DNA of 63,993 nucleotides, filler included, from Fonticula-like sp. SCN 57-25 (Eukaryota): assembly GCA_001724245.1 (NCBI GenBank). It is 7 parts of 7 records of this genome, joined end to end, with 100 filler letters (N's around TTAATTAATTAA, not from the genome) between each part and the next. Parts side by side here need not be neighbours in the genome. Positions count along the whole stretch, not along the records: positions 25,152 to 41,323 come from MEDX01000309.1; 6 more parts are not named here. One strand, 5' to 3'. The notes below the pieces were generated by a model, which did no database searches, was not told the DNA's origin, and worked only from the letters and a program-made list of their open reading frames with translations. The position numbers and the translations under genes were made by a program. Below are positions 3,313-55,620 of this stretch, one piece after another; the stretch's first letter is position 1, and each line of letters opens with the position of its first letter.

Positions 3313-4255
3313 TTAGAAAATACGGACCGGGCGGCCCATGGTGCTCTTGACGAAGAGCGAGCGGACGTTCTGCCAGTTCTTCTTCAGGAGGGAGACGAGG
3401 AAGTTGACCGAAAGAGCAATGTTCTGCACAAGCTGCTCCTCAGTGAGCTCGACGTTGCCGACGGCAACACCGAGGCAGAGAACCTTCTTGAGCTGGAACT
3501 TGACGGTGGCCTTGATCTCCTCCGACTTGGCGGTGAGCGAGTCCGAGTGCGACACCGGGGTGGGGAACTTGCCGGCCTTGTTAAGACCGGGGCCAAGGAT
3601 ACGGGGAATCTGCTTGATGAGCGACTCCGAGGCGAGGAACGCATCGTACTTCTTGGCTGCATTACAACGTCAGTCAGCATGAAAGGAGAACGGCCAGCAG
3701 AACGCACCAAGCTTCTTGATGAGCTTCTTGTTCTTGTTGAGCTTCTTGAGGTCATCAGCAGTCATGCTCTCGAGACCAGCCTCCTTGGCCTGATCGACGT
3801 GAGCGGCATCGGCAAGGACGCAGATGCTCATGCGCGGGCGGGGAACGGTCGGGAGACGCATGGTACCGCTGAAACGCTTGTCCTTGGCGGTATCATAGTT
3901 CTTGAGGCCGACCTGGAGCTCAACAGTCTCAACGAAGTTGCGCTTGTTCTCCTTGGAATCGGCAAGGATCTTGCGGACCGAGTCGGTCAGGAGCTCACGG
4001 GAGATCTTGCTGAAACGCAAAAAGCGGAATGTGAGATGTCAAGGTCATTCAGACATGGCTAGCAATGAGCAAGAGGGCTCGAAAACAACACGGATGCCGG
4101 CTGTGGCGTGGATGTCTGGCAGATGGCGCTAGGCATCCCGTGGATGCGCGCGGCCATCCGCGGATCATCCCATCCACGCCAGCTTAACCATCGGACAAAG
4201 AGACAGCATCCCGCCCACCTACAGAGCATATAGCCTGACTCTCGGCGTACCTCAT
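3313..4255 (-). CDS. RPL10A: 60S ribosomal protein L10a (uL1); exons 4255-4251, 4009-3708, 3656-3313
   Basis: MSKIS...[17 protein letters not shown]...[15 protein letters not shown]...[12 protein letters not shown]. Confidence 0.97.
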
Positions 4256-4566
4256 GGTTCTGAACGACGCTTACAACCGCTGGCGACGGCTGTGTAGGGG
4301 CGCGGCGTGGTAAAAGGGACTGAGCTTGAGCGATGCACGCACCCTCTTGAGGCACCTGTGCACAAGTTGTGACAGGTGGATATTGATTGAACATGACGCA
4401 ATATGGGATGATTGCAACAGGGTCACTATGGACAATATTACGGACATTGGCGTGCAATGCACGGACGCTGAGAACCAGAAAATGCACCCAACTGACTATG
4501 GGCATCCAGGCTCTGCCTAAAAAGTGGGACAAACAATTTGGTTTCAAATTACATTGTACAACGCGT

Positions 4567-5918
<1,352 letters not shown>

Positions 5919-14227: not shown

Positions 14228-14958
14228 TTAACGGTAGCGGTGGAAGACGGTGGCGTTGCGGCGCTTGTACGAGGCCTTGCGGGAGCCACCAATGGTCTGG
14301 TGGAAGCCGTGGCCCTTGCCGAGACCGCGCGAGCTCTTGCCGGCGCCGGTGAGACCGCGGAGCTCGCGGTGCTTCATGACGTTGCTGCAGATCCAGTTGA
14401 TGCGGGGATCGCGGCGGATGGCCTTGTGGCTGGGGTCGACGAGGATGACCTCATAGAACTTGTAGAGGGCATCCTGGTTGATCCAGTACGAGTTGAGCAC
14501 GCGGAGGTTACCGCAGACGCGGCCAGCGCGCTGCTCAGCGAGAGCGCGGTGGTTGCGGCGGGGCTTCAGCTGGTTAACACCATGGGTCTTGGGCTTGCCA
14601 TAGGTCTGACCCTTGATGACGGGGCGCTTGCGGCCACCGCGGCGGACACGCACGCGGTAGACAACAAAGCCCTGCTTGGCCTAGAAAAGAAAAGAGAGAA
14701 TGCGGTAAGATTACGGCGATTACGAAAGCGATCGGGACAAACCTTGTAGCCGAGGCGGCGAGCCTTGTCGGGGCGGCTCGGGCGCGAGGCGCGGTGCACA
14801 GCCGAAAGCTGGCGCAGCTCCCAGCAGCGCACGCGCAGAATGAAGCGCAGCACATCAGACTGCTTCTTCTTGTAGAGCTCCTCAAGATACTTGTAGGCTA
14901 ACGGGGGACATGAGTACACGCGTCATCCAAAAGTCTCGAGAAGTAACGTACCGCCCAT
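14228..14958 (-). CDS. RPL15: 60S ribosomal protein L15 (eL15), with 5'UTR intron 14961-15213
   Basis: [18 protein letters not shown]...[11 protein letters not shown]...LRVLNSYWI...HRELRGLT. Confidence 0.97.
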
Positions 14959-26365: not shown

Positions 26366-26686
26366 CGCGGGCGACCTTGCTCTTTCTGGCTGCAACCACA
26401 AAAAGCAGGGTGGCCAATGACGATCCGAATGCGGTCGAGTGTTTTTTCATTATAAATCGCATGCGATTTATGAAAATCAGAAAAATCAGAAAAAACAAAG
26501 AAAAATCAGTTGCACAGCCAGCGGCCAGGAGGCCAAACAAGTTCGACGAGTCCGCGACCTCGCTGCTCCTGTTTGCGCATCGTTTTCTTTCGCTCCGCCA
26601 TCAATTGCACAAGATCGTATTGTGTGGCGTCTATAGTGGTGTTTTCCAAAGAAGCGTTTTAGTATCTTTTTTGGCTTTCTGCGATA

Positions 26687-27352
26687 ATGTTTGCTGCTGC
26701 GGTGCGTCGCTCGGCGACCGTGACGGGCGCGCTCCGATCGATGACGCCACAGAGGAGGATGGCCACCCATACTAACGTACGGATACATGTTTATGTATTT
26801 CAATGTACTCATACTATTTCTAGCCACAGGAGCCTGAGCGTGGGCTTACATTTACGACTTTTCTTGGCGCCTCCCTCACGATGATTGGAGGTATGGTGGC
26901 GGGTGCCGTGATCGCCAACCGCGGCGCCGAGTTTCTCGATAAGGGGCTTGGGCTCTACCACCATGTAGACGAGGACGAGGAGGAGGAGGTCGACGATGAC
27001 GACGACGATAACGACGCCAAGGAGAGCGACACGAGCAAGGCCTCGACTGAATCCGATGCCGAGGATGTTGCTGCGCCTCAAGCGGCTCCTTCTATCTTTG
27101 GCGTTGGCTCGACCGACGCCGTTCGCGTGCTTTCTGCCGGTACAAACCTCCTTCCTGTTATCTCGGTTCGCTCACGACTATTATCTAGGCGAGCGAGTGA
27201 AGTGGTACATCGAGTCGCAGCAGAAGCAGCTCGAGCTACTCCAGGCGGTGGACCTGTCGGCGGCGCCCCAGTGGGAGAAGGATTTGCTGATGCGCACGAC
27301 GTCGACACTCCACACAAACCTCAAGTCAATCAAAAAGCATGTCCAAAATTAA
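26687..27352 (+). CDS. EMRE/SMDT1-like mitochondrial calcium uniporter regulator with C-terminal extension; exons 26687-26776, 26824-27139, 27189-27352
   Basis: Mitochondrial presequence MFAAAVRRSAT..., PQEP, single TM with GMVAGAVIA, amphipathic NRGAEFLD, acidic tract DEDEEEEVDDDDDD. Confidence 0.65.
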
Positions 27353-27689
27353 TGTCAAGGCCCCCAATTGGTATGGTCGGCGCGGGGAATCCTGCTGCGC
27401 TCGACCATTCTTTTCTTTTATCTTGAAGGTATCTTTTTGTTTCTGCCCCTGCTAATGCGCTGGTAATGCGCGGGTTGCATGTATCGCAAACCACATCCAC
27501 CCATTGTATCCAATCGCACCCAATTCGAATTTGAACCCATAATACACCCCAAATAGTCGCAAATGGGCGGCGCGCGTCTTCGTGGAGCTTCTTTCGCTCT
27601 ACCCACTCCCAGTTAAGGTAGCCAAAGGCAACTGCTTTCCGTGAGCCACTCGTAGTCGGCGCCTCGAAGTGAGTGAGCCTTGGCGGGGC

Positions 27690-27863: not shown

Positions 27864-30090
27864 ATGGGTACGTGAGGAGATGGGGCCCCGAACGATTTCG
27901 TTCGGCGGCAGCGCCGGTTAATTGGGGGCCGCCGCTAACATTTGCGTGGTTTCTTTTTTGTTTTCTTTTTGCTTTTAGCGGCCCTTAAGCAGTACACTGT
28001 TGAGGTCAACGTGCCGGAGAAGGCTGGCGAGGGCAAGCCCCGCCGTAACATCCTCCTGGGCCAGGGCGAGCCCACCGTCTACTATGATCCCAAGATCACG
28101 ACCCTTTGGGAGAACTTTGAGAAGGGTTGCGCTGCCTCCGGTGCGCCGATTGGTCATCGTGCGTGCGTTGACTCACCGATTTACTTGTTTTCTTTTTTGA
28201 TCAGGCGACCAGCCGTGCTACGGTCGCCGCACTGTTACCAACGGCGTCGCCGGCGACTTCCAGTGGATGACCTACAACGAGGTCCGCACCACTGCCGTCC
28301 ACATCGGGTATGCAATTCTCTAGCCGGTTTGACGTGATTTGTAATCGTGATTTGCTAGTGCTGCCCTGGTCAAGATCGGCACCCCCGCCAAGGCCAACGT
28401 TGGTCTCTACTCGATCAACCGCACTGAGTGGGTCCTCGGTGAGCTCGCTTGCTATGCCTACAGCTTTGTCACCGTGCCCCTCTACGATACCCTCGGCGAT
28501 GAGGCCATCGAGCACATTGTTGTCCAGACCGAGCAGTCCGTCATCTTCCTGACGTCCGACAAGCTCAAGAACCTCATCAACCTCAAGGCCAAGCTCCCCT
28601 CGCTCAAGACGCTCATTATCATGGACAACTCGACCGACTCGGTGACCAAGGCCAAGGATGCCGGCTATGAGGCGTACACGTTCGAGGACTTCACCAAGCT
28701 CGGCGCCAGCAACGCGACCCCCGTCACCCCGGTCTCGTCGGATGACCTCGCTACCATCTGCTACACCAGCGGCACCACCGGTCTGCCCAAGGGTGTCATG
28801 CTCTCGCACCGCAACTTTGTTGCCGACTTCCAGTCGCTCAACTGGCTCGCCGACCGCGGCGATGGCCTCCAGATCACCCGCGACGATGTCCACATCTCGT
28901 ACCTCCCTCTTGCCCACGTCTTTGAGCGCATCGTCCACGCCTACCTCATGGGCCTCGGTTCCCGCATTGGTTTCTACCAGGGCGATACCCTCAAGCTCCT
29001 CGATGACGTCGCCGCTCTCCGCCCGACCATCTTTGTCAGCGTGCCCCGTCTCCTCAACCGCGTGTACGACAAGATCCTCGGCGCCATCGCCGCCGACGGA
29101 GGCATCAAGAAGTTCCTCTTTGACCGCGCCTATGCGTCCAAGCTGAGCTACCTCCGCCAGGGCCACTTCACCCACTGGTTCTGGGACCGCCTCATCTTCT
29201 CCAAGGTCCGTGCCCGCCTCGGCGGGCAGGTGCGCGTCATCCTCACTGGCTCGGCCCCCATCGGTGCCGATGTCATGGACTTCCTCCGCATCGCCTTCAG
29301 CTGCCACGTCTTTGAGGGCTACGGCCAGACCGAGTCGTGCGCCGGCTCGTGCCTTACCGGCCGCGCCGATCTCGAGTCGGGCACCGTCGGTGTGCCGCTC
29401 CCGGTCAACGACGTCAAGCTCGTCGACGTTCCCGAGATGAACTACACCAGCGCGGACAAGCCGTTCCCCCGCGGTGAGATCTGCTTCAAGGGTGCCAACA
29501 TTACCCCTGGCTACTACAAGGACGAGAAGAAGACCAAGGAGGACATTGACGCCGACGGCTGGCTGCACTCGGGCGACATTGGTCTCTGGGACGCCCAGGG
29601 CCGCCTCCGCATCATTGACCGCAAGAAGAACATCTTCAAGCTCGCCCAGGGTGAGTACATTGCCCCCGAGAAGATTGAGAACATCTACCAGAAGTCCAAG
29701 TGGGTCGCCCAGGCCTTTGTGCACGGCGAGTCCCTCAAGGCTTTCCTTGTCGGTGTCTTTGTCCCCGATGCCGAGACCATCCTCCCCTGGTGCAAGGAGC
29801 AGGGCATCCAGGGCACCACCCTCGCCGAGGTCATCAAGGACGAGCGTGTCAACAAGCTCATCCTCGCCGACGCCATCAAGACCGGCAAGGAGTGCGGCCT
29901 CAAGGGCTTTGAGCAGATCAAGCGCGTCCACCTCACCGCCGAGGCCTTCTCGGTCGAGAACGACCTCCTGACCCCCACCTTCAAGCTCAAGCGCCCGGTC
30001 TCCAAGCGCTTCTTTGAGAAGGAGCTCACCACCATGATGGACGATGTCGACGCCGAGGAGGCTGCCAAGAAGGCTAGCGCGTCCGCCTAA
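27864..30090 (+). CDS. Long-chain fatty acyl-CoA synthetase (ACSL/LACS)
   Basis: YTSGTTGLPKGV, SYLPLAH, EGYGQTE, DGWLHSGDIG, IIDRKKNIFKLAQGEYIAPE. Confidence 0.96.
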
Positions 30091-30313
30091 GCGCGCCCTA
30101 TTGAGTCGCTCTTGTTTGGTCTCGTTTCCCTCTTTGCTTGGTTGACCTTGTGTTTCGTTGAGAGTTTTTCTGTAGTCGTTCCATATCCGCCAATACAGCC
30201 CCGTATTTCAGTAATAATCGTTTCAGAGACTGGGATCGATAAGCACACGATACATCATTATCAAAGTGAATGAAAGTTTATTATTGTACACAGCAAAGCA
30301 CGAAAAGGCAAAA

Positions 30314-36060: not shown

Positions 36061-39000
36061 ATGCCGGTGCCGGACGGGTTCTTCCTGGTACGAGCGGGGT
36101 CTTTTGTTTCTACTCTGGTGCTAATGTGTGGAGTCTAGAATGAGGATGACATTCCCTTTGAGGAGGAGCTGTTGAGGAATCCGACCACGCTGCGCGGATG
36201 GCTCAGGTATCTGCAGCACAAGACGGGCACCGACGAGCCGATCCGTTATCAGATCTTTGAGCGCGCCGTCAAGGGTGCGCGTTGCAGGGTATTTGCGCTT
36301 GTTTTTCTTACTCTTTTTGTTAGAATTGCCGGGAAGCTATAAACTATGGAAGCAGTACCTTGATGAACGCCGTGCGGTTGCCGCGCATCTGCCCGTGTCG
36401 CACCGCTTTTACGAGCAGACGAACCAGGCGTACGAGCGCGCGCTCGTCCTTCTCAACAAGGTGCGCTTTTTTATATGCTTTTTTATTGTCTGCTCACGAT
36501 TATTTGATAGATGCCGCGCATCTGGCTCGACTATTGTGATTTTCTTGTTCAGCAGCGCCTTTTGACGCGGGCGCGCCTTGCGTATGATGAAGCGCTTCGT
36601 GCGCTGCCGATCACGCAGCACGATCGCGTATGGGAGCCCTACCTCAAGTTTGTTCATTCAATGTGCCCCGTCGAGACGGCCGTGCGCGTACATCGTCGCT
36701 TCCTTAAGCTTCACCCTGATCGCGCCGAAGATTACATTGACTTTTTGGTCGAGTCGGAGCGCTTTGACGAAGCGGCGCTCCGCCTTGCGGGCCTCATCAA
36801 CGACGCCACCTTCCAGTCGCGGAACGGCAAGACGCAGCACCAGATGTGGGTTGAGCTTACCGACATGTGCTCGCGCCACGCGCGCCATGTGCGCAGCATC
36901 AAGGTGGACCCCATCATCCGCTCTGGCATTGTGCGTTTCTCTGACAACCTTGGTCACCTCTGGACGTCCCTCGCGTCGTACTACACGCGCCTCGGCCAGT
37001 TTGACAAGGCGCGCGACGTGTACGAGGAGGCGATCACCTCTGTCCATTCCGCGCGCGACTTTAGCCAGATCTTTGACGCGTACGCCGAGTTTGAGGAGAC
37101 GATTGCGACGAGCCAGATGGACGCTGTGGCGCGCAACGCCCCCGGCGCCGAGGCGCAGCTTTCGCGCATGATGGCGCGCATCGAGAGCATCCTCGACCGC
37201 CGCCCATTCCTCATGAACGAGGTGCTGCTGCGGCAAAACCCGAACAATGTCCACGAGTGGCTCAAGCGCGCGCGACTCTTTGCGACGATGCCGCGCTCGG
37301 ACCCGGCCAAGGTCGCCGCCGTCTTTAACCAGGCCCTTGAGGCCGTCAACCCCAAGGAGGCCACCGGCCACTACAGCCACCTCTGGATCTCGTACGCGCT
37401 CTACTACGAGAACGGGTGCACAATGCCCGAGAAGCAGCAGCTTGACGAGGCGTCGGGCGTCGCGTCCGCGCCCATCGACGACGGATTCGCGTCGGGGTCA
37501 AAGCGCAAGCGCGACGACGACGACCACGACGGCAAGGGCAAGCCGTCGCAGCCGGACCTGCAGAGGGCGCGCGCCGTGTTTGAGCGCGCGGTAAAGGCGC
37601 CTTTCCGGCGCGTCGAGGAGCTCGCAGGCGTGTGGTGCGCGTACGGCGAGATGGAGCTGCGTCAGGGGTGCGAAATAACGCATTATTATGGAAATTTTGC
37701 TAATTATGCTTGCAGGCAACCGAAGCGCGCGCTGACGCTGATGGCCCGCGCGACGACGCCCGTGAAGCGCAATGTCAATTTCTACGACGAGGTATGCCTC
37801 TTTTGTGGTGTTTTCTGGCTTTTGAGCATATCCTAAAACCATTTTTGATGTGTTTCCAGGGTGAGACTGTGCAGGCGCGCGTGTACAAGTCGACGCGCCT
37901 TTGGTCTTTCTACGCCGACTTGGAAGAGTCGCACGGGACGGTCGAGTCGACCAAGGCCGTGTACGACCGCATCCTCGAGCTCAAGATTGCCACGCCGCAG
38001 ATCATCATCAACTATGCGCTGTTCCTCGAGGACAACAAGTACTTTGAGGAGGCGTTCAAGGTGTACGAGCGCGGCGTCGAGCTCTTCAAGTACCCGATCG
38101 CTTTCGAGATCTGGAACACGTACATTTCAAAGTTCATCAAGCGCTACGTACGACAATTATTCCGATTTTGTTACCGTGCTGACAGGTGCGCTAGGGTGGG
38201 AGCAAGCTGGAGCGCACGCGCGACATGTTTGAGCAGGCGCTCACGGACTGCCCGAGCAATCTCTGCAAGCCGCTGCTGCTCATGTACGCCAACCTCGAAG
38301 AGTCGTATGGCCTCGCTCGCCACGCCATGAAGATTTACGAGCGCGCCACGTCGGCCGTCGAGGAGAAGGACCGCTTCCAGGTGCGTTTTGCCCGCATTTT
38401 TACCCGCGTTTTTCTCACTTTTTTGTGCAGATGTATCAGCTGTACATTCAAAAGGCCGCTCAGACCTTTGGCATCACTGCGACGCGCCCCATCTACGAGC
38501 GCGCCATCGAGTCGCTGCCGCCCAAGGGCGCGCGCACCATGTGCCTGCGCTTTGCCGAGCTGGAGCGCAAGCTTGGCGAGCTCGACCGCGCGCGCGCCAT
38601 CTACTCGCACGGCTCGCAGTTTTGCGACCCGCGCGTCGACGACGAGTTCTGGCAGGTGTGGCGCGACTTTGAGGTCGACCACGGCAACGAGGACACGTTC
38701 CGCGAGATGGCGCGCATCAAGCGCAGTGTGCAGGCGCACTACAACTCGCAGGTCAACATCACGACGGCGCACCTGATCGCCGCCAAGTCGGCCGCGCCGG
38801 CGGTCGCCGATGGCCAGGCGATCCACCACATGGCCGTGCTCGAGGCGGCTGCCACGCCGAGCCGCGCCGCAGTGCCGTTCGTGCCGTCGTCCGAGAGCAA
38901 GGGGAAGGCCGCCGTCAACCTCGAGGAGATCGAGCTCGGGGACGACGACGACGAGGACATGGATAGCGCAGAGGGCGAGGAGAGCGGCGAGGAGGAGGAG

Positions 39001-45136: not shown

Positions 45137-48100
45137 CTACTGCGCGAGTTCCAAAAGGCGGGCGTTCAGGACGGCAGCCGACGGGCGGCTCGCCGAGTCC
45201 ATCGAAAGGCACTCTTCGATCATGGATGCGACCGCCATGGAAACGTTGTCGCCGCCGTCCGAGATTACCTGAAGCCCCTTGCCAGCAGCGACAGCGTCGC
45301 AGACCGCGCTGTCCGGCGTCGATCCCCACGGCGCGTTGCCCGACAAAATTTCATACATGACGACACCGAGCGAGTACATGTCGGACGCCATGTCGGCATC
45401 AATCAAAGGCGCTTCCGTGCTGCCATCCGCCTGACGCGCGAGCACCTCGGGCGCGGCATAGCGAACGTTAAAGTTGGACTCGCGCACATACATCGAAGTC
45501 CTAGAGCCACCGCGTTAGCTACAAATAATATTATAAATATGGGTGGGCGTACTCGCTCCGCGCCTGCGAAAAGTGGCCGAGCTGGCAGACAGGCGTCGAA
45601 TCCGGTGTCACGTTCAGGTAAATGTTGGCCGACTGAATGTTGCGATGAGCCACGCCGAGCGTGTGGACGGCATTGACGGCCTGTGCAACTTCGCAGCAAA
45701 TACGAAGAATGTCATCGATGGGCATCGGGCGCGGGGCCTCGCTGAGGAAGCGCTGCAGGTCCCTGTTGTACTCGCGGACAATGATTGTGCGCGGCTCGTC
45801 GGTGTAGCCAATCAGGCCCATAATGTTGGGGTGGAACGACAGCGACCACAGGATAGACACCTCAAAGTGGAACAGCTCATTGTTCTCCTGCGTAGAGAGC
45901 TCGGCGCGGTCAAAGTAGTCAATGACAAAGACCGAGCGGCTGCCGGCGCGCTGCTCGAGGCGGTCGTCAATAACGGCCGCGTGGTACATGACAGCGGTCG
46001 TCGAGGTCTATCAAATCATCAGTACACAGAGATCATAATAGCGCAGAAACGCACATCCACGCGCTCGCCGGGCTGAATTGACGTCGAGTAGTCGGTCAAA
46101 AGGAAGCCAGGAAGCGCAATCTCGGCGACCGTGTTCACAACAGTCTTGTCGGCAAACGAAAGATGAGTCGTGCTCTCGGCATGGCGCATGCTGCCGCGAG
46201 AGCGCGCGAGCGTCTGGCGATATGTGCTCAGTGCCATCTATAAAATGCATCAGCAAACTGAAAACACAAAAATGCAATTCGGCGCACCAGGCCGTCGGCG
46301 CCGCCAAACTGCTCTAGCTTGTCGTTCGTGCGCCTCTGGCGGCGACGGGTAACGACGACAATGACGACAATAATGATAATGAGAACAACGACCGCAGACG
46401 CGCTCGCGGCGGCAATGATTGTGCCGTTTGTTCCAAGGCTCGGGTCTTGCACGACGTTGTCGGTCGTCGCGAGCGTGGTGAGAACAAGGCGGGTGCCGAC
46501 CTGCTCCTCGCCGTTCGCGTCACCTGCCAAGATAAGCACCTCGTATGGGCGGCCGGGCTCAAGTCCTTCAATCACCGCGACAGTGCTGTCGGCTGTGGGC
46601 ACTCACGACGTTAGTCAAACACAAAAAAGTCCGTCCGATCGTACTGTTGTTGACGCGCGAGTGAAGCGTGAAATCATCGGTGACGGCGCGCTGCGGGACA
46701 ACCTCGCGGTAATACACCATGTAGTATGTCGCGTGCGGCGAGGCGGTCCAGCTCAGCGACAGCGAGTCGGTCGACGGCTCATCGACGCGCAGGCCAGACG
46801 CAGCTGCACAGTAATGTCAGTAAAGAAAACGGAAACATAAAATGCGCGTACGTGTAATGTAGGTTTGAACAGTGATCACGGCGCCTCCCTCAGTGTTGTA
46901 GCCATTCTCATCGCCAGATGTGACGCGGAATTGGTAGACAGTCCTCGGGAAAAGGTTCTTAATCTCAATCGTCTGCGCGGTAAAGTCGATGGCAGCTAAG
47001 CACACTGGTGAGCATCATGGCATAATAAATAGCATGGGAGAGCGCGCACTGTGGAGGTTGGCCACGACAAAGGCGCTGGTGCCGAGCGCGACCTCGGCGA
47101 GGAAAGTCACGTTGCCGGTCGAGTTCAGGACGTTCCACGCAAGCACAACAGATGTCGACGTCTTGCTCGTCCACGTCAGGTTGGCAATGTTGTCGTTGCT
47201 CTCCACGGGGATCAGTTCGCACACGTTCGAAAAGCCCTCCTCCCACGTTCCATCAAAGTTGCACTGGCGCGACGGCGGTCCGGCGGCCGAGTCCTGGTAA
47301 CCGTGCGGGCAGCGGCCAATGCTCACCTCGCCCGGCTCGGCAGCAGGGAAGAAGGTGTTGCCAATGCTCTCGGTCGGGCAGTCGTCGTACTTGATCTTGC
47401 ACGGGTCCACAACAGTCGCGTTCCAAACACCGGAAATCAGGCACTGGCGCGAAGGGAAGCCAGTCATGCCTTCGCGGCATGTGCCCGACGCGACGCTGCC
47501 GGCAATCGTCTCGTTCCACGTCGCGTCGCTAAAGGTGTTTTCGGGGCAGTAAAGCGCTACGCAATAATGTCAGCGTCACAATATAAATCATACGCGCTCG
47601 TACGCGTGCACGTGTTGGAGATGGCGCCCCACTGGCCGCTCGAATCGCACTCGCGCGAGGGCGAGCCAGAATAGCCAGCGTTGCAGGTTCCAGCCACGGT
47701 CGGCGAGAGCGACGTCGAGAGCGGCCACTGCGCGTTGCCGTCCTCAATGGCGGGGCACGAAAGACCTGCGCAGACAATGAGCAACAGCAAAACCAAAGCG
47801 AATTTGACGTACGAATGCAGCCGTTGGCAACGGGGCCCCACTGGCCATCCAGCGAGCATTCACGAGACGGGCCGCCAGCGTATCCAGTATGGCAGACGCC
47901 AGCCGCCGCGCTACCAGCCGACGTCTCGGGCCATTCCGCGTTCTCAAACGTAGCAGACGAGCACAGCAGCGCTATCAACCGACGTGAGTAAACATCACCA
48001 AAATCTATCAAACTGCATACCGGTGCAAGATCCAGCGACAGCGGACCAGCTACCGTCCGTGCGACAGTCGCGCACAAGCGAGCCAGTCATGCCAATCGGG

Positions 48101-49588
48101 CAGGCGCCCTCCACCTCGTTCGAGCCGGCAACCGTCTCCGGCCACGTGCCATCAGTACCTTCGTCCACAGCGGGACACATGGTACGAATGCAGTGGTTCG
48201 AGGTGGCCGAGTAGATGCCGTCGGCCGTGCAGTTGCGGAGCGGAGCGCCCTGCCAGCCTTCAATGCAAGTGCCGCGAACGCCAGTCGTCATCGAATCGGA
48301 CTGCGGCCAGTTGGCATTGTCCGACACAACAGCATTGCAGCGGAGGCGAGTGCACGTGCCGATGGCGGCTTCCCACGAGCCGCTCGCGCTGCACTTGCGC
48401 GTCGGCTGGGTCGAGAATCCAAAGCCCTCGACGCAAGATCCCGACGCGGTCGAGCCAGGGTCCGTCGAAGGCCACACAACGCTGTCAATGGTCTCGGCCG
48501 GGCACGCATATTCTAAAAAAATAATAACCGTGTTAATTGCCGCCACAAACACATCAGATGCGCACGTTCGCAGACGCCGGAAATCGGCTGCCAGACACCA
48601 TCGGACGAGCAAGAGCGCGACACTGTGCCGTAAAAGCCTTCCTTGCACGTTCCAGACACAGTCACACCGCCGAGCGTCGCCGGCCAATCGGCATCGCCCT
48701 CCGAACGCGCGGTGCACTGCTTCTGCGTACACGGATTTGAAACCGTCTCCCATTGGCCTGTGATAGAGCAAGCGCGGGTCGGCGAGCCCTCGTAGCCGGC
48801 AAAGCACGTGCCGGTAGAAACCTGGCCGGCCTGCGTCGACGGCCACGACGACTGCTGGCCATCGTTTGAGATGGCCGCGCACACAATGGCGTTGCAGAGC
48901 GGCGAAGGTGTCGACCACTCGCCAGTGAGCGAGCAGCTGCGCGACGTCGTGCCAGTGTACCCGGCAACGCACGTGCCCGTCGCGGTGTAGCCGGCCTGAA
49001 TCGTCTCGGGCCACTCGGCAAAGTGCGGCTGGTACGACGGCAGGTCCTTGGTGCAGTAGATCGGCTCGCACGGGTTCGTGATCACATTGTCCCACTGGCC
49101 GTTCTGCTTGCACAGACGCGTGGGCGTGCCGCTCGACTTGTACCCAGGCACGCACGTGCCATTAACGACCGTGTTCACCTCGTCGGGCGACCGCCAGTTG
49201 GCGTGGTAGTCGTTGGTCAGCGCGTCGCAAGGGTTGGTCGAGCATGGGTTCAGCACATCAGACCACGTTCCATTGTAGAAGCAGTCGCGGCGCGGGGAAC
49301 CAGACGTGTTGGGATAGCACTCGCCAGCAACCGACGTCTCGCCAGCATACGCCATCGGCCAGATAGCGAGAGCGCTCGACTCATTACGCGCGGGGCACTT
49401 AAGCTCTACAGGGCATCGTCAGATAACACAAAGACAAATGTGCCAGATGCGCACGAATGCAAACGCCGGAAGCTAAGCCCCAGTTGCCAACAATATCGCA
49501 CGAGCGCGTCGGCGCGCCCTCCCATCCAGGGTCGCACTTGCCGACCACATCAGCAGATCCGGCAGCCACGGGGGCCCACGAAGCATGC
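45137..49588 (-). CDS. Single-pass receptor pseudokinase: at least 13 Cys-rich repeats + 2 FN3 + TM + kinase fold; 5' truncated
   Basis: Repeats C-x-WPxT-x-GxCxxGYxGxPxRxCxxxGxW-x-C; FN3 motifs LFPRTVYQFRV and LEPGRPYEV; TM followed by RRRQRR; HPNI, HRNIQSANI, YAAPE, SDMYSLG. Confidence 0.85.
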
Positions 49589-53783: not shown

Positions 53784-55620
53784 ATGGACGGGGATGCTGC
53801 GGCGTATCGCGAGGCGCAGCTGCTGTCTGTGACGGGGCTGTCGGGCGGCTCGGTCATCGAGATCCAGCACGTTGCCATGACGGCCATTGTACGCTACTTT
53901 GCATTTAGCTTAACTTGATTGACTGAATATGGTCCAGGTCTCGCACATTGCCGTGCGTTGCGCGGGGCTGCTCATTGGGGATGCCGCACCCATTGTGCGC
54001 GTCGCCGTCGAGTACGTCCTCATCGTGGTGCCGATCCTCATTGCGTTTACGTTCACCGAGTGGACTGCGGCACTGCAGGTGGTTCTGCTGGGCGCGTCGC
54101 TCGCCATGTTTATGATCGCGCGGCCCGCCGTGACAGTGTTCAGCCAGCCGGCCAAGGGCCAGACGACCACCGCTTGGCACCGCCAGACGCTCATCACGCT
54201 AAACTCTAACAGGAAGCGTACGCAGCAGCAATAATTATGTGATATTTTAGCGTTTATGTGTTGTATTGGTATGATGTGGTGTATTTGTCGCGCGTGATCA
54301 GACAGATCATGATGGAATTTGCTGTCATTTCTTTCATTTCCCTCCATTTCCCCCCTTCCCCTTCTCACTCCCTTCCTCCTTTTCAGCCTTCCTGACGGCT
54401 TACCGCTCCCTGATGATGCTCTCCACGTGCGCGGCCATTCTCGCCGTCGACTTTTCCATCTTTCCCCGCCGCTTCGCCAAGACCGAGACCTTTGGCACCT
54501 CCCTCATGGACGCCGGCGTCGGCTCCTTTGTCCTCTCCAACAGCCTCACCCTCGCCCCTCTCCTCCTGCAAACTGAATCACGTGACAAACCACGTGACGC
54601 GTCACGTGCTCGTCGTGCTGTTTCTTTGCTGCTGCCGACGGTGCCGCTCGTGCTTCTTGGCCTCGGCCGCCTTGTCAGCGTGACCCTGTCTGACTACCAG
54701 CACCACGAGGGCGAGTATGGCGTTCATTGGAACTTTTTCTTTACTTTGGCGGCGATGCCGGCGGTGGCGGCGGCGGTCGTGGCGGGCGGGGGCAAGAAGG
54801 TGGCCATGGTGGCGGCGGGTGTCGCATTAGGTGCATTGGTGGAAAAGAATGATGGGGTAATATGGGAGTTGTATTGGTAATGGTAGTGGTAAAGTGTATT
54901 GGAAATGGTAATGGTACTGATAATGGTAATGATATTGTAATTATGTAATACTGTTATGTCTGCTATCTGATATATGATATATGATATATGATGTTTGATA
55001 TTTGCCTGATACTAATTATACTCTTTCCAATAGTGTACCAGCTTGTTCTTTCGTATGCCGGCCTTGGCGACTATCTTTTGTTTGTCCCCCGCGACCCATC
55101 TTCCCTCTTTTCCCTTAATAAGGAAGGCATCGTAAGTGTCATTGGCTTTGCCTGCATCTACATGTTTGGCGCGCGCGTCGGCGCCGCCCTCCTCGGCCAG
55201 CGGCGCACCTTTGGCCAATGGCGTCGCCTCGCGGGCAATCTCGGCATTGTTAGCGCGGCATGCTGGGCCACGTGGTTTGTGGTGACAGTTGTGATTGGCT
55301 GGGACACGTCGCGGCGGTTGGCCAACCTGCCGTACGTGCTCTTTGTGATTGGCTACAATCTGCCAATCATTGCTGGGCTGCTGGCGGTCGATCTGGCCGT
55401 TGGGTTCCCGCCGCAGCCAATCCTATATGATACTATTAATAGGAACCAATTGGTGCTGTTCCTGCTGGCCAATGTGATGACGGGGGCGGTCAATATGAGC
55501 ATGCGCACGCTGTGGGCGGGGGGGGCGGTTGGCTTTGCTGTCCTATGTACGTACATGGGGGTCCTATGTGCGGTGGCGTACGCACTGCACGCGAGGAATA
55601 TTACACTAAAGTTTTGGTGA
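53784..55620 (+). CDS. GWT1: GPI inositol acyltransferase GWT1/PIG-W
   Basis: AILAVDFSIFPRRFAKTETFGTSLMDAGVG, EYGVHWNFFFTL, NKEGI, SRRLANLPY. Confidence 0.95.

Follow-up and report, generated by a model that had tools for sequence, protein, structure and literature searches.

Positions 26687-27352 on the plus strand of the window (63,993 nucleotides, the whole stretch of DNA analysed here) hold a three-exon gene, from an uncultured single-celled eukaryote, with a predicted product of 189 amino acids. The window is ordinary eukaryotic nuclear DNA from a metagenome assembly, and its genes are spliced. Besides the gene under study, it carries genes for RPL10a, RPL5, RPL15, Hus1, TMEM43, an acyl-CoA-synthetase-like enzyme, kinases, a LYR protein, DHODH, homoserine dehydrogenase, a mitochondrial carrier, SYF1, GWT1, RAVE and an HRM/sushi receptor. 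The three cytosolic ribosomal proteins RPL10a, RPL5 and RPL15 are encoded within 12 kb (3316-5415 and 14231-14922, minus strand), each with short introns. When RPL5 was searched against the PDB, entries that we take to be animal scored 350-363 bits and those that we take to be fungal 277-309 bits, a comparison that does not place the organism.

Several other features of the surrounding DNA were recorded. The GC content between 16000 and 24000 is 0.42-0.45, compared to 0.53-0.61 elsewhere in the window, and this part holds the TMEM43-like gene and several ORFs without a Pfam match. A 668-aa open frame, also without a Pfam match, lies at 28204-30207 on the minus strand, antisense to an AMP-binding enzyme gene (28351-30087, plus strand; 1.1e-78); this frame is most likely a GC-driven shadow ORF. 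At 45534-49418 (minus strand), HRM, sushi and ephrin-receptor-type cysteine-rich modules adjoin a tyrosine-kinase-like fragment. The GWT1 intron at 54830-55000 (plus strand) is about 180 nt, unusually long for the window, and shows GGTAAT/GGTAGT-type repeats followed by GATATAT repeats.

Gene model and strain variation

The gene is made up of the following exons and introns.

26687-26776 (+): exon 1, 30 codons
26777-26823 (+): intron 1, 47 nt, GTACGG...CTAG, GC 0.30; its removal brings exon 1 and exon 2 into frame
26824-27139 (+): exon 2, the frame resuming at 26824
27140-27188 (+): intron 2, 49 nt, GTACAA...CTAG, GC 0.45, with GCTCACGA 14 nt upstream of the acceptor
27189-27352 (+): exon 3, a 53-aa tail and the stop codon at 27350-27352

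The ATG at 26687 is the earliest in-frame ATG past a stop, and the joined coding sequence of 570 nt gives the 189 residues and a stop codon. An earlier sequence-only reading of this DNA had quoted peptides joined across two canonical introns. The peptides and the introns, both GT-AG, are found in place, and joining the exons gives the 189-aa product. The same reading described the gene as split over three ORFs, and it is indeed spread over three stop-to-stop frames at 26663-26884, 26824-27426 and 26969-27352. The introns are AT-richer than the exons, the latter having GC contents of 0.55-0.64, and GC3 of the coding sequence is 0.71.

The introns of RPL15, RPL10a and SYF1 in the window, used for comparison, are about 45-60 nt long and end in AG, two of them in CTAG. 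GT-purine-C-G donors were seen at three of the five readable junctions of other window genes; two further stretches showed no clear intron. Intron 2 (27140-27188) and a SYF1 intron (36462-36510) both have a CTCACGA box, placed 12-14 nt upstream of the acceptor. This box may be the branch-site consensus of the organism.

Metagenome contigs from other strains were compared with the window. Over its 49 nt, intron 2 varies between strains by 4 substitutions and a 1-nt deletion; the 190 nt upstream of the ATG have 9 substitutions, and 5 changes, 3 of them synonymous, were counted in the 570 coding nucleotides. The two exon-1 variants, at 26734 and 26773, are both synonymous; the linker has a non-synonymous D>G change at 27029, and exon 3 has one synonymous variant and one K>Q change at the start of the tail. 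A variant row at 26990 was left out of the count, its source being unrelated acidic-repeat contigs. The DNA of the acidic tract (26968-27016), which consists of GAC/GAG/GAT repeats, draws unrelated contigs by the dozen across the four metagenome runs compared, with a summed depth reaching 630, and because of this repeat the share of words is inflated for runs without the gene.

Two gene-caller proteins from strain contigs, P0004 and P0005, have an exon-2 peptide identical to that of the window. They differ from each other exactly in the intron-2 read-through, and P0004 keeps the exon-3 peptide unchanged. The 1-nt strain indel thus breaks the read-through frame after exon 2 and leaves the exon-3 peptide as it is, which counts against translation of an unspliced read-through. 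The three-exon model is predicted from the splice signals, the composition of the introns and the strain variants, among them this 1-nt indel in intron 2. Of 15 sequencing runs listed for this DNA, none that contains it is on record as RNA. Intron 1 is placed by its own signals and composition, the sole contig that covers it being identical there.

Protein architecture and relatives

From the N-terminus, the predicted product runs from an Arg-rich presequence-like segment through PQEP, an uncharged helix, the motif A-x-x-L-D, an acidic tract and a linker to a helical hairpin.

26687-26776 (+): presequence-like N-terminal segment, 30 aa with 5 Arg, no Asp/Glu and 13 Ser/Thr/Ala
26824-26835 (+): proline pair PQEP, 4-7 residues before the helix, at the position of PKP in animal EMRE
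26848-26919 (+): predicted transmembrane segment, 24 residues without a charged residue, with the best Kyte-Doolittle windows
26920-26964 (+): conserved juxtamembrane segment, in which A35, L38, D39, L42, G43 and H46 are invariant
26968-27012 (+): acidic tract, 13 Asp/Glu in 15 residues, beginning 16 residues past the helix
27013-27139 (+): low-complexity linker of about 43 residues, predicted disordered (AF2 pLDDT 43-69, no secondary structure)

The composition of the exon-1 segment fits a putative mitochondrial presequence. Its amphipathic moment is no higher than that of shuffled sequences, 780 of 1000 shuffles reaching the same value. AF2 predicts one long helix over residues 6-42.

Relatives of the protein are few. 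An exhaustive HMMER search over 1.84 billion representative proteins returned, apart from two fragments belonging to the window itself, a single protein, P0006 (E=4.4e-4, 41% identity). Three more proteins came from a word-index search that used P0004 aligned with P0006: P0008, which closely resembles P0006; the more distant P0009; and P0007. Counting P0006, P0008 and P0009, the non-self relatives number three in searches of 1.84 and 5.8 billion proteins. The BLASTP match between the candidate and P0009 (E=3e-7) covers nothing but the helix and juxtamembrane segment, with the acidic tract outside it, and the kinship of the candidate and its relatives is for this reason independent of the acidic run. 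The three relatives come from other organisms, are 34-45% identical to the candidate, and have the same helix, the same invariant G, G, A, A, A, L, D, L, G and H, and the same acidic run. They are known only as gene-caller fragments running into introns and were compared over the core. Further searches gave no additions: a word-index search with alignment A2 (30-111 aa) listed 23 candidates, none at E<=10, and metagenome locus scans with A1 and P0006 gave 608 and 598 pattern matches, respectively, none of which was confirmed.

In the four-sequence core alignment, M20, G23, G27, A28, A31, A35, L38, D39, L42, G43 and H46 (exon-2 numbering) are invariant, together with aspartates. The small-residue stripe G23-xxx-G27-xxx-A31-xxx-A35 is thus found in all four sequences. 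The 11 non-acidic invariant positions (20-46) fall on one face of the helix, and only 4 of 10000 random position sets were as concentrated. The acidic tract is present in all three relatives; in the candidate it is internal rather than C-terminal.

Beyond the acidic tract, the linker and a helical hairpin of 53 residues stand as an extra C-terminal domain. The exon-3 tail is predicted by single-sequence AF2 as a helix-loop-helix (helices 2-18 and 27-52) with a mean pLDDT of 94 and a pTM of 0.68, and its sequence is identical in P0004 and P0007. A Foldseek search of the tail model against the PDB gave 111 matches at E<=10. All were generic helical hairpins, and no match reached E<=0.001. The predicted complex of two tail copies scored 0.02 against a mark of 0.32, a result that is uninformative either way.

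P0007 itself (263 aa, from a contig of 2170 nt) matches the window over 26995-27352, that is, the acidic tract, linker, intron-2 read-through and tail. Its N-terminal part is unrelated, Thr/Ser-rich and acidic, and stands where the helix would be. Two explanations fit this protein: a chimera that arose in assembly at the GAC/GAG repeat, or a paralogue with the tail alone in common.

Comparison with EMRE

EMRE is the single-helix subunit that turns on the mitochondrial calcium channel. In the sequence-only reading, the gene was put forward as a candidate for a divergent EMRE extended at its C-terminus. The architecture described above shares several features with animal EMRE (SMDT1): a small core, an N-terminal targeting-like segment, one helix with G-xxx-G-xxx-S/A spacing, A-x-x-L-[DE] just past the membrane, and an acidic run that follows the helix after about 15 residues. 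In contrast, PQEP takes the place of the PKP anchor motif, which is absent from the candidate, at the corresponding distance before the helix. The PKP of human EMRE is placed at residues 58-60 in PMC7764451. Binding by human EMRE needs this motif. The acidic tract also differs, being a mixture of Glu and Asp in an internal position, followed by the 43-aa linker and the 53-aa hairpin, both absent from animal EMREs.

A closer likeness in overall form is offered by the chytrid EMREs of Allomyces macrogynus (EMRE1/2), Spizellomyces punctatus and Catenaria anguillulae, reported by Pittis et al. 2020 (PMC7423614). According to the account given there, these proteins are, like the candidate, very divergent from animal EMRE and keep GXXXA/S/G and an acidic tail. 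They also have an extra domain C-terminal to that tail, which is described in the same source as needed by their own MCU and absent in Holozoa; here the likeness is one of layout. The long architecture has thus already been described. The earlier claim of an extra domain of unknown role holds as to the presence of the domain; as a kind the domain is not new, since chytrid EMREs with an extra C-terminal domain are in print (PMC7423614). In the literature found, EMRE in Holomycota is reported only by Pittis et al., and no report links SMDT1 with protists.

To compare the family with solved structures, a profile was made of the candidate and its three relatives (A4; four sequences, two of them nearly identical) and searched against 177,635 distinct PDB sequences. 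The EMRE of Tribolium (6xqn, chain E) ranks first with E=0.0028 and 20.9 bits, and the next match has E=1.3, so that this animal EMRE is the sole match of the profile with an E-value below 1. No subunit of other solved mitochondrial complexes is among the PDB matches of this profile. We regard the match as borderline-significant. The two are aligned in register, pairing G/G, G/G, A/A, A/S, A/A, L/L and D/E before the acidic run. G23, G27, A28 and A31 of the candidate are thus matched with G, G, A and S of Tribolium EMRE, and A-x-x-L-D with A-x-x-L-E. These seven conserved positions of the helix and juxtamembrane segment lie outside the acidic run.

Single sequences gave less. P0008 alone matched 6xqn_E at rank 2 with E=0.12, in an alignment that includes F-G at the start of the helix, and the candidate alone matched Tribolium EMRE at rank 3 with a non-significant E-value of 2.3. 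P0009 alone matched no EMRE in the PDB. With its acidic tract removed, the candidate matched no EMRE in the PDB at E<=10, the only match being an unrelated one at E=4; since the EMRE match is lost without the tract, part of the signal is composition. Human EMRE was unmatched in all six PDB searches with the candidate, its relatives and their profiles.

The Pfam model of the family (PF10161, DDDD; gathering score 27 bits) gave a similar picture. The candidate, searched as the whole exon 2 or as a 63-aa core, has no PF10161 match at E<=10, and a profile hit of its own, which the sequence-only reading had looked to, is thus missing. For P0009, PF10161 is the best Pfam match (E=0.041, 14.1 bits, model positions 45-76 of 76), and P0008 matches it with E=0.37 and 11 bits; both scores are far under the 27-bit cut-off, and both matches fall at the C-terminal end of the model. 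P0006 has no PF10161 match. Pfam matches to UBE2O SH3-A, osteopontin, DUF2457 and the like reflect the composition of the acidic tract and were discarded as meaningless. In the ESM Atlas, the three clusters nearest to residues 1-60 of P0008 all belong to PF10161 (0.84, 0.80 and 0.80), which we use as leads only, as a third of shuffled proteins reach scores under 0.9 in calibration. The candidate core gave no usable match there.

Taken at the level of the family, this evidence points to EMRE and to nothing else. We consider it probable, from the sequence comparisons, that the product is an EMRE-type subunit of the mitochondrial calcium uniporter, divergent in sequence and of the long form known from chytrid fungi. 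This degree of confidence is based on three methods, each of which leads to EMRE rather than any other family, and on the record of the Pfam model itself: at its gathering threshold, a first pass found one of the four accepted chytrid EMREs, as recounted in PMC7423614, so that three of the four were also missed. Of the earlier proposal, the gene model and the EMRE-like architecture stand. The evidence for EMRE comes from the family, and the candidate by itself gives no PF10161 match and no significant match to EMRE in the PDB.

The main competitor, which we hold to be unlikely, is a small membrane protein of restricted lineage that has no relation to EMRE and resembles it as would any short protein in which an acidic run comes after one glycine-rich helix. 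Such a product could be another mitochondrial inner-membrane or organellar protein with the hairpin as its working part. Every EMRE match is weak and none exceeds a curated threshold, and the loss of the candidate's match with the acidic tract, the failure to match human EMRE, the missing PKP and the Atlas scores within reach of shuffled proteins all weigh in the same direction. So do the tiny size of the family and the tail, the best-folded part of the product, which has no counterpart in animal EMRE. Against this competitor, three independent methods, the HMMER profile against the PDB, the Pfam model and the language-model features, each rank EMRE at or near the top and no other single-pass acidic protein. 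The alignment is also in register at seven positions outside the acidic run, and an EMRE with a C-terminal extension is a form already described, as reported in PMC7423614.

That the three-exon model is wrong or the locus non-functional, so that the product is limited to the exon-2 ORF read from an internal ATG, comes from an unspliced read-through or does not exist, is very improbable: the model was predicted from DNA alone, with intron 1 placed by signals and composition, and the gene callers gave only read-through ORFs from an internal Met (P0004 and P0005), but that Met sits in the middle of the hydrophobic helix, both GT-AG introns resemble other window introns in length and donor, the strain indel breaks the read-through but leaves the exon-3 peptide unaltered, 3 of the 5 coding changes are synonymous, GC3 is 0.71, and the tail folds at a pLDDT of 94 from a single sequence.

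Proposed role and meaning

For an EMRE of this long form, we infer localisation, topology, binding partners and the role of the tail from the solved animal complex and the chytrid experiments. The Arg-rich N-terminus would direct import into mitochondria, and the single helix would halt in the inner membrane, leaving the N-terminus on the matrix side and the C-terminus facing the intermembrane space. The face of small residues (G-xxx-G-xxx-A-xxx-A, then L-D) may pack on transmembrane helix 1 of an animal-type MCU and keep the pore openable. The EMRE helix is described in PMC7764451 as the part that controls MCU, its contact with TM1 controlling opening in human MCU. Outside the membrane, the acidic tract would hold the basic patch of MICU1, and the flexible linker could let the hairpin tail make a second contact in the intermembrane space, with MCU or MICU1, one that the cognate MCU would need. 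Of the window's 203 ORFs of at least 110 aa, 148 were scanned, and neither MCU nor MICU was among them.

A further-reaching reading, which we rate as doubtful, is that the candidate and its three relatives form a branch of EMRE that has so far gone unsampled, in free-living protists that belong neither to the animals nor to the three chytrids known to have EMRE and possibly lie outside fungi. The hairpin would then be an ancestral second docking module of the opisthokont or an older EMRE, later lost in animals. If this were true, the origin of the EMRE-dependent uniporter would move, and the tail would provide a small, well-folding handle for structures of non-animal MCU-EMRE-MICU1 complexes.

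The value of the present observation is limited in that the long architecture is already in print and no MCU partner was seen among the ORFs scanned. Apart from animals and their unicellular relatives, three chytrid species alone are reported to have EMRE. From a larger set of EMREs outside animals, one could learn where the helix, juxtamembrane segment and extension are under real constraint. Such a set would also shed light on why chytrid MCU, as opposed to human MCU, needs the extension, and would date the MCU-EMRE-MICU1 core.
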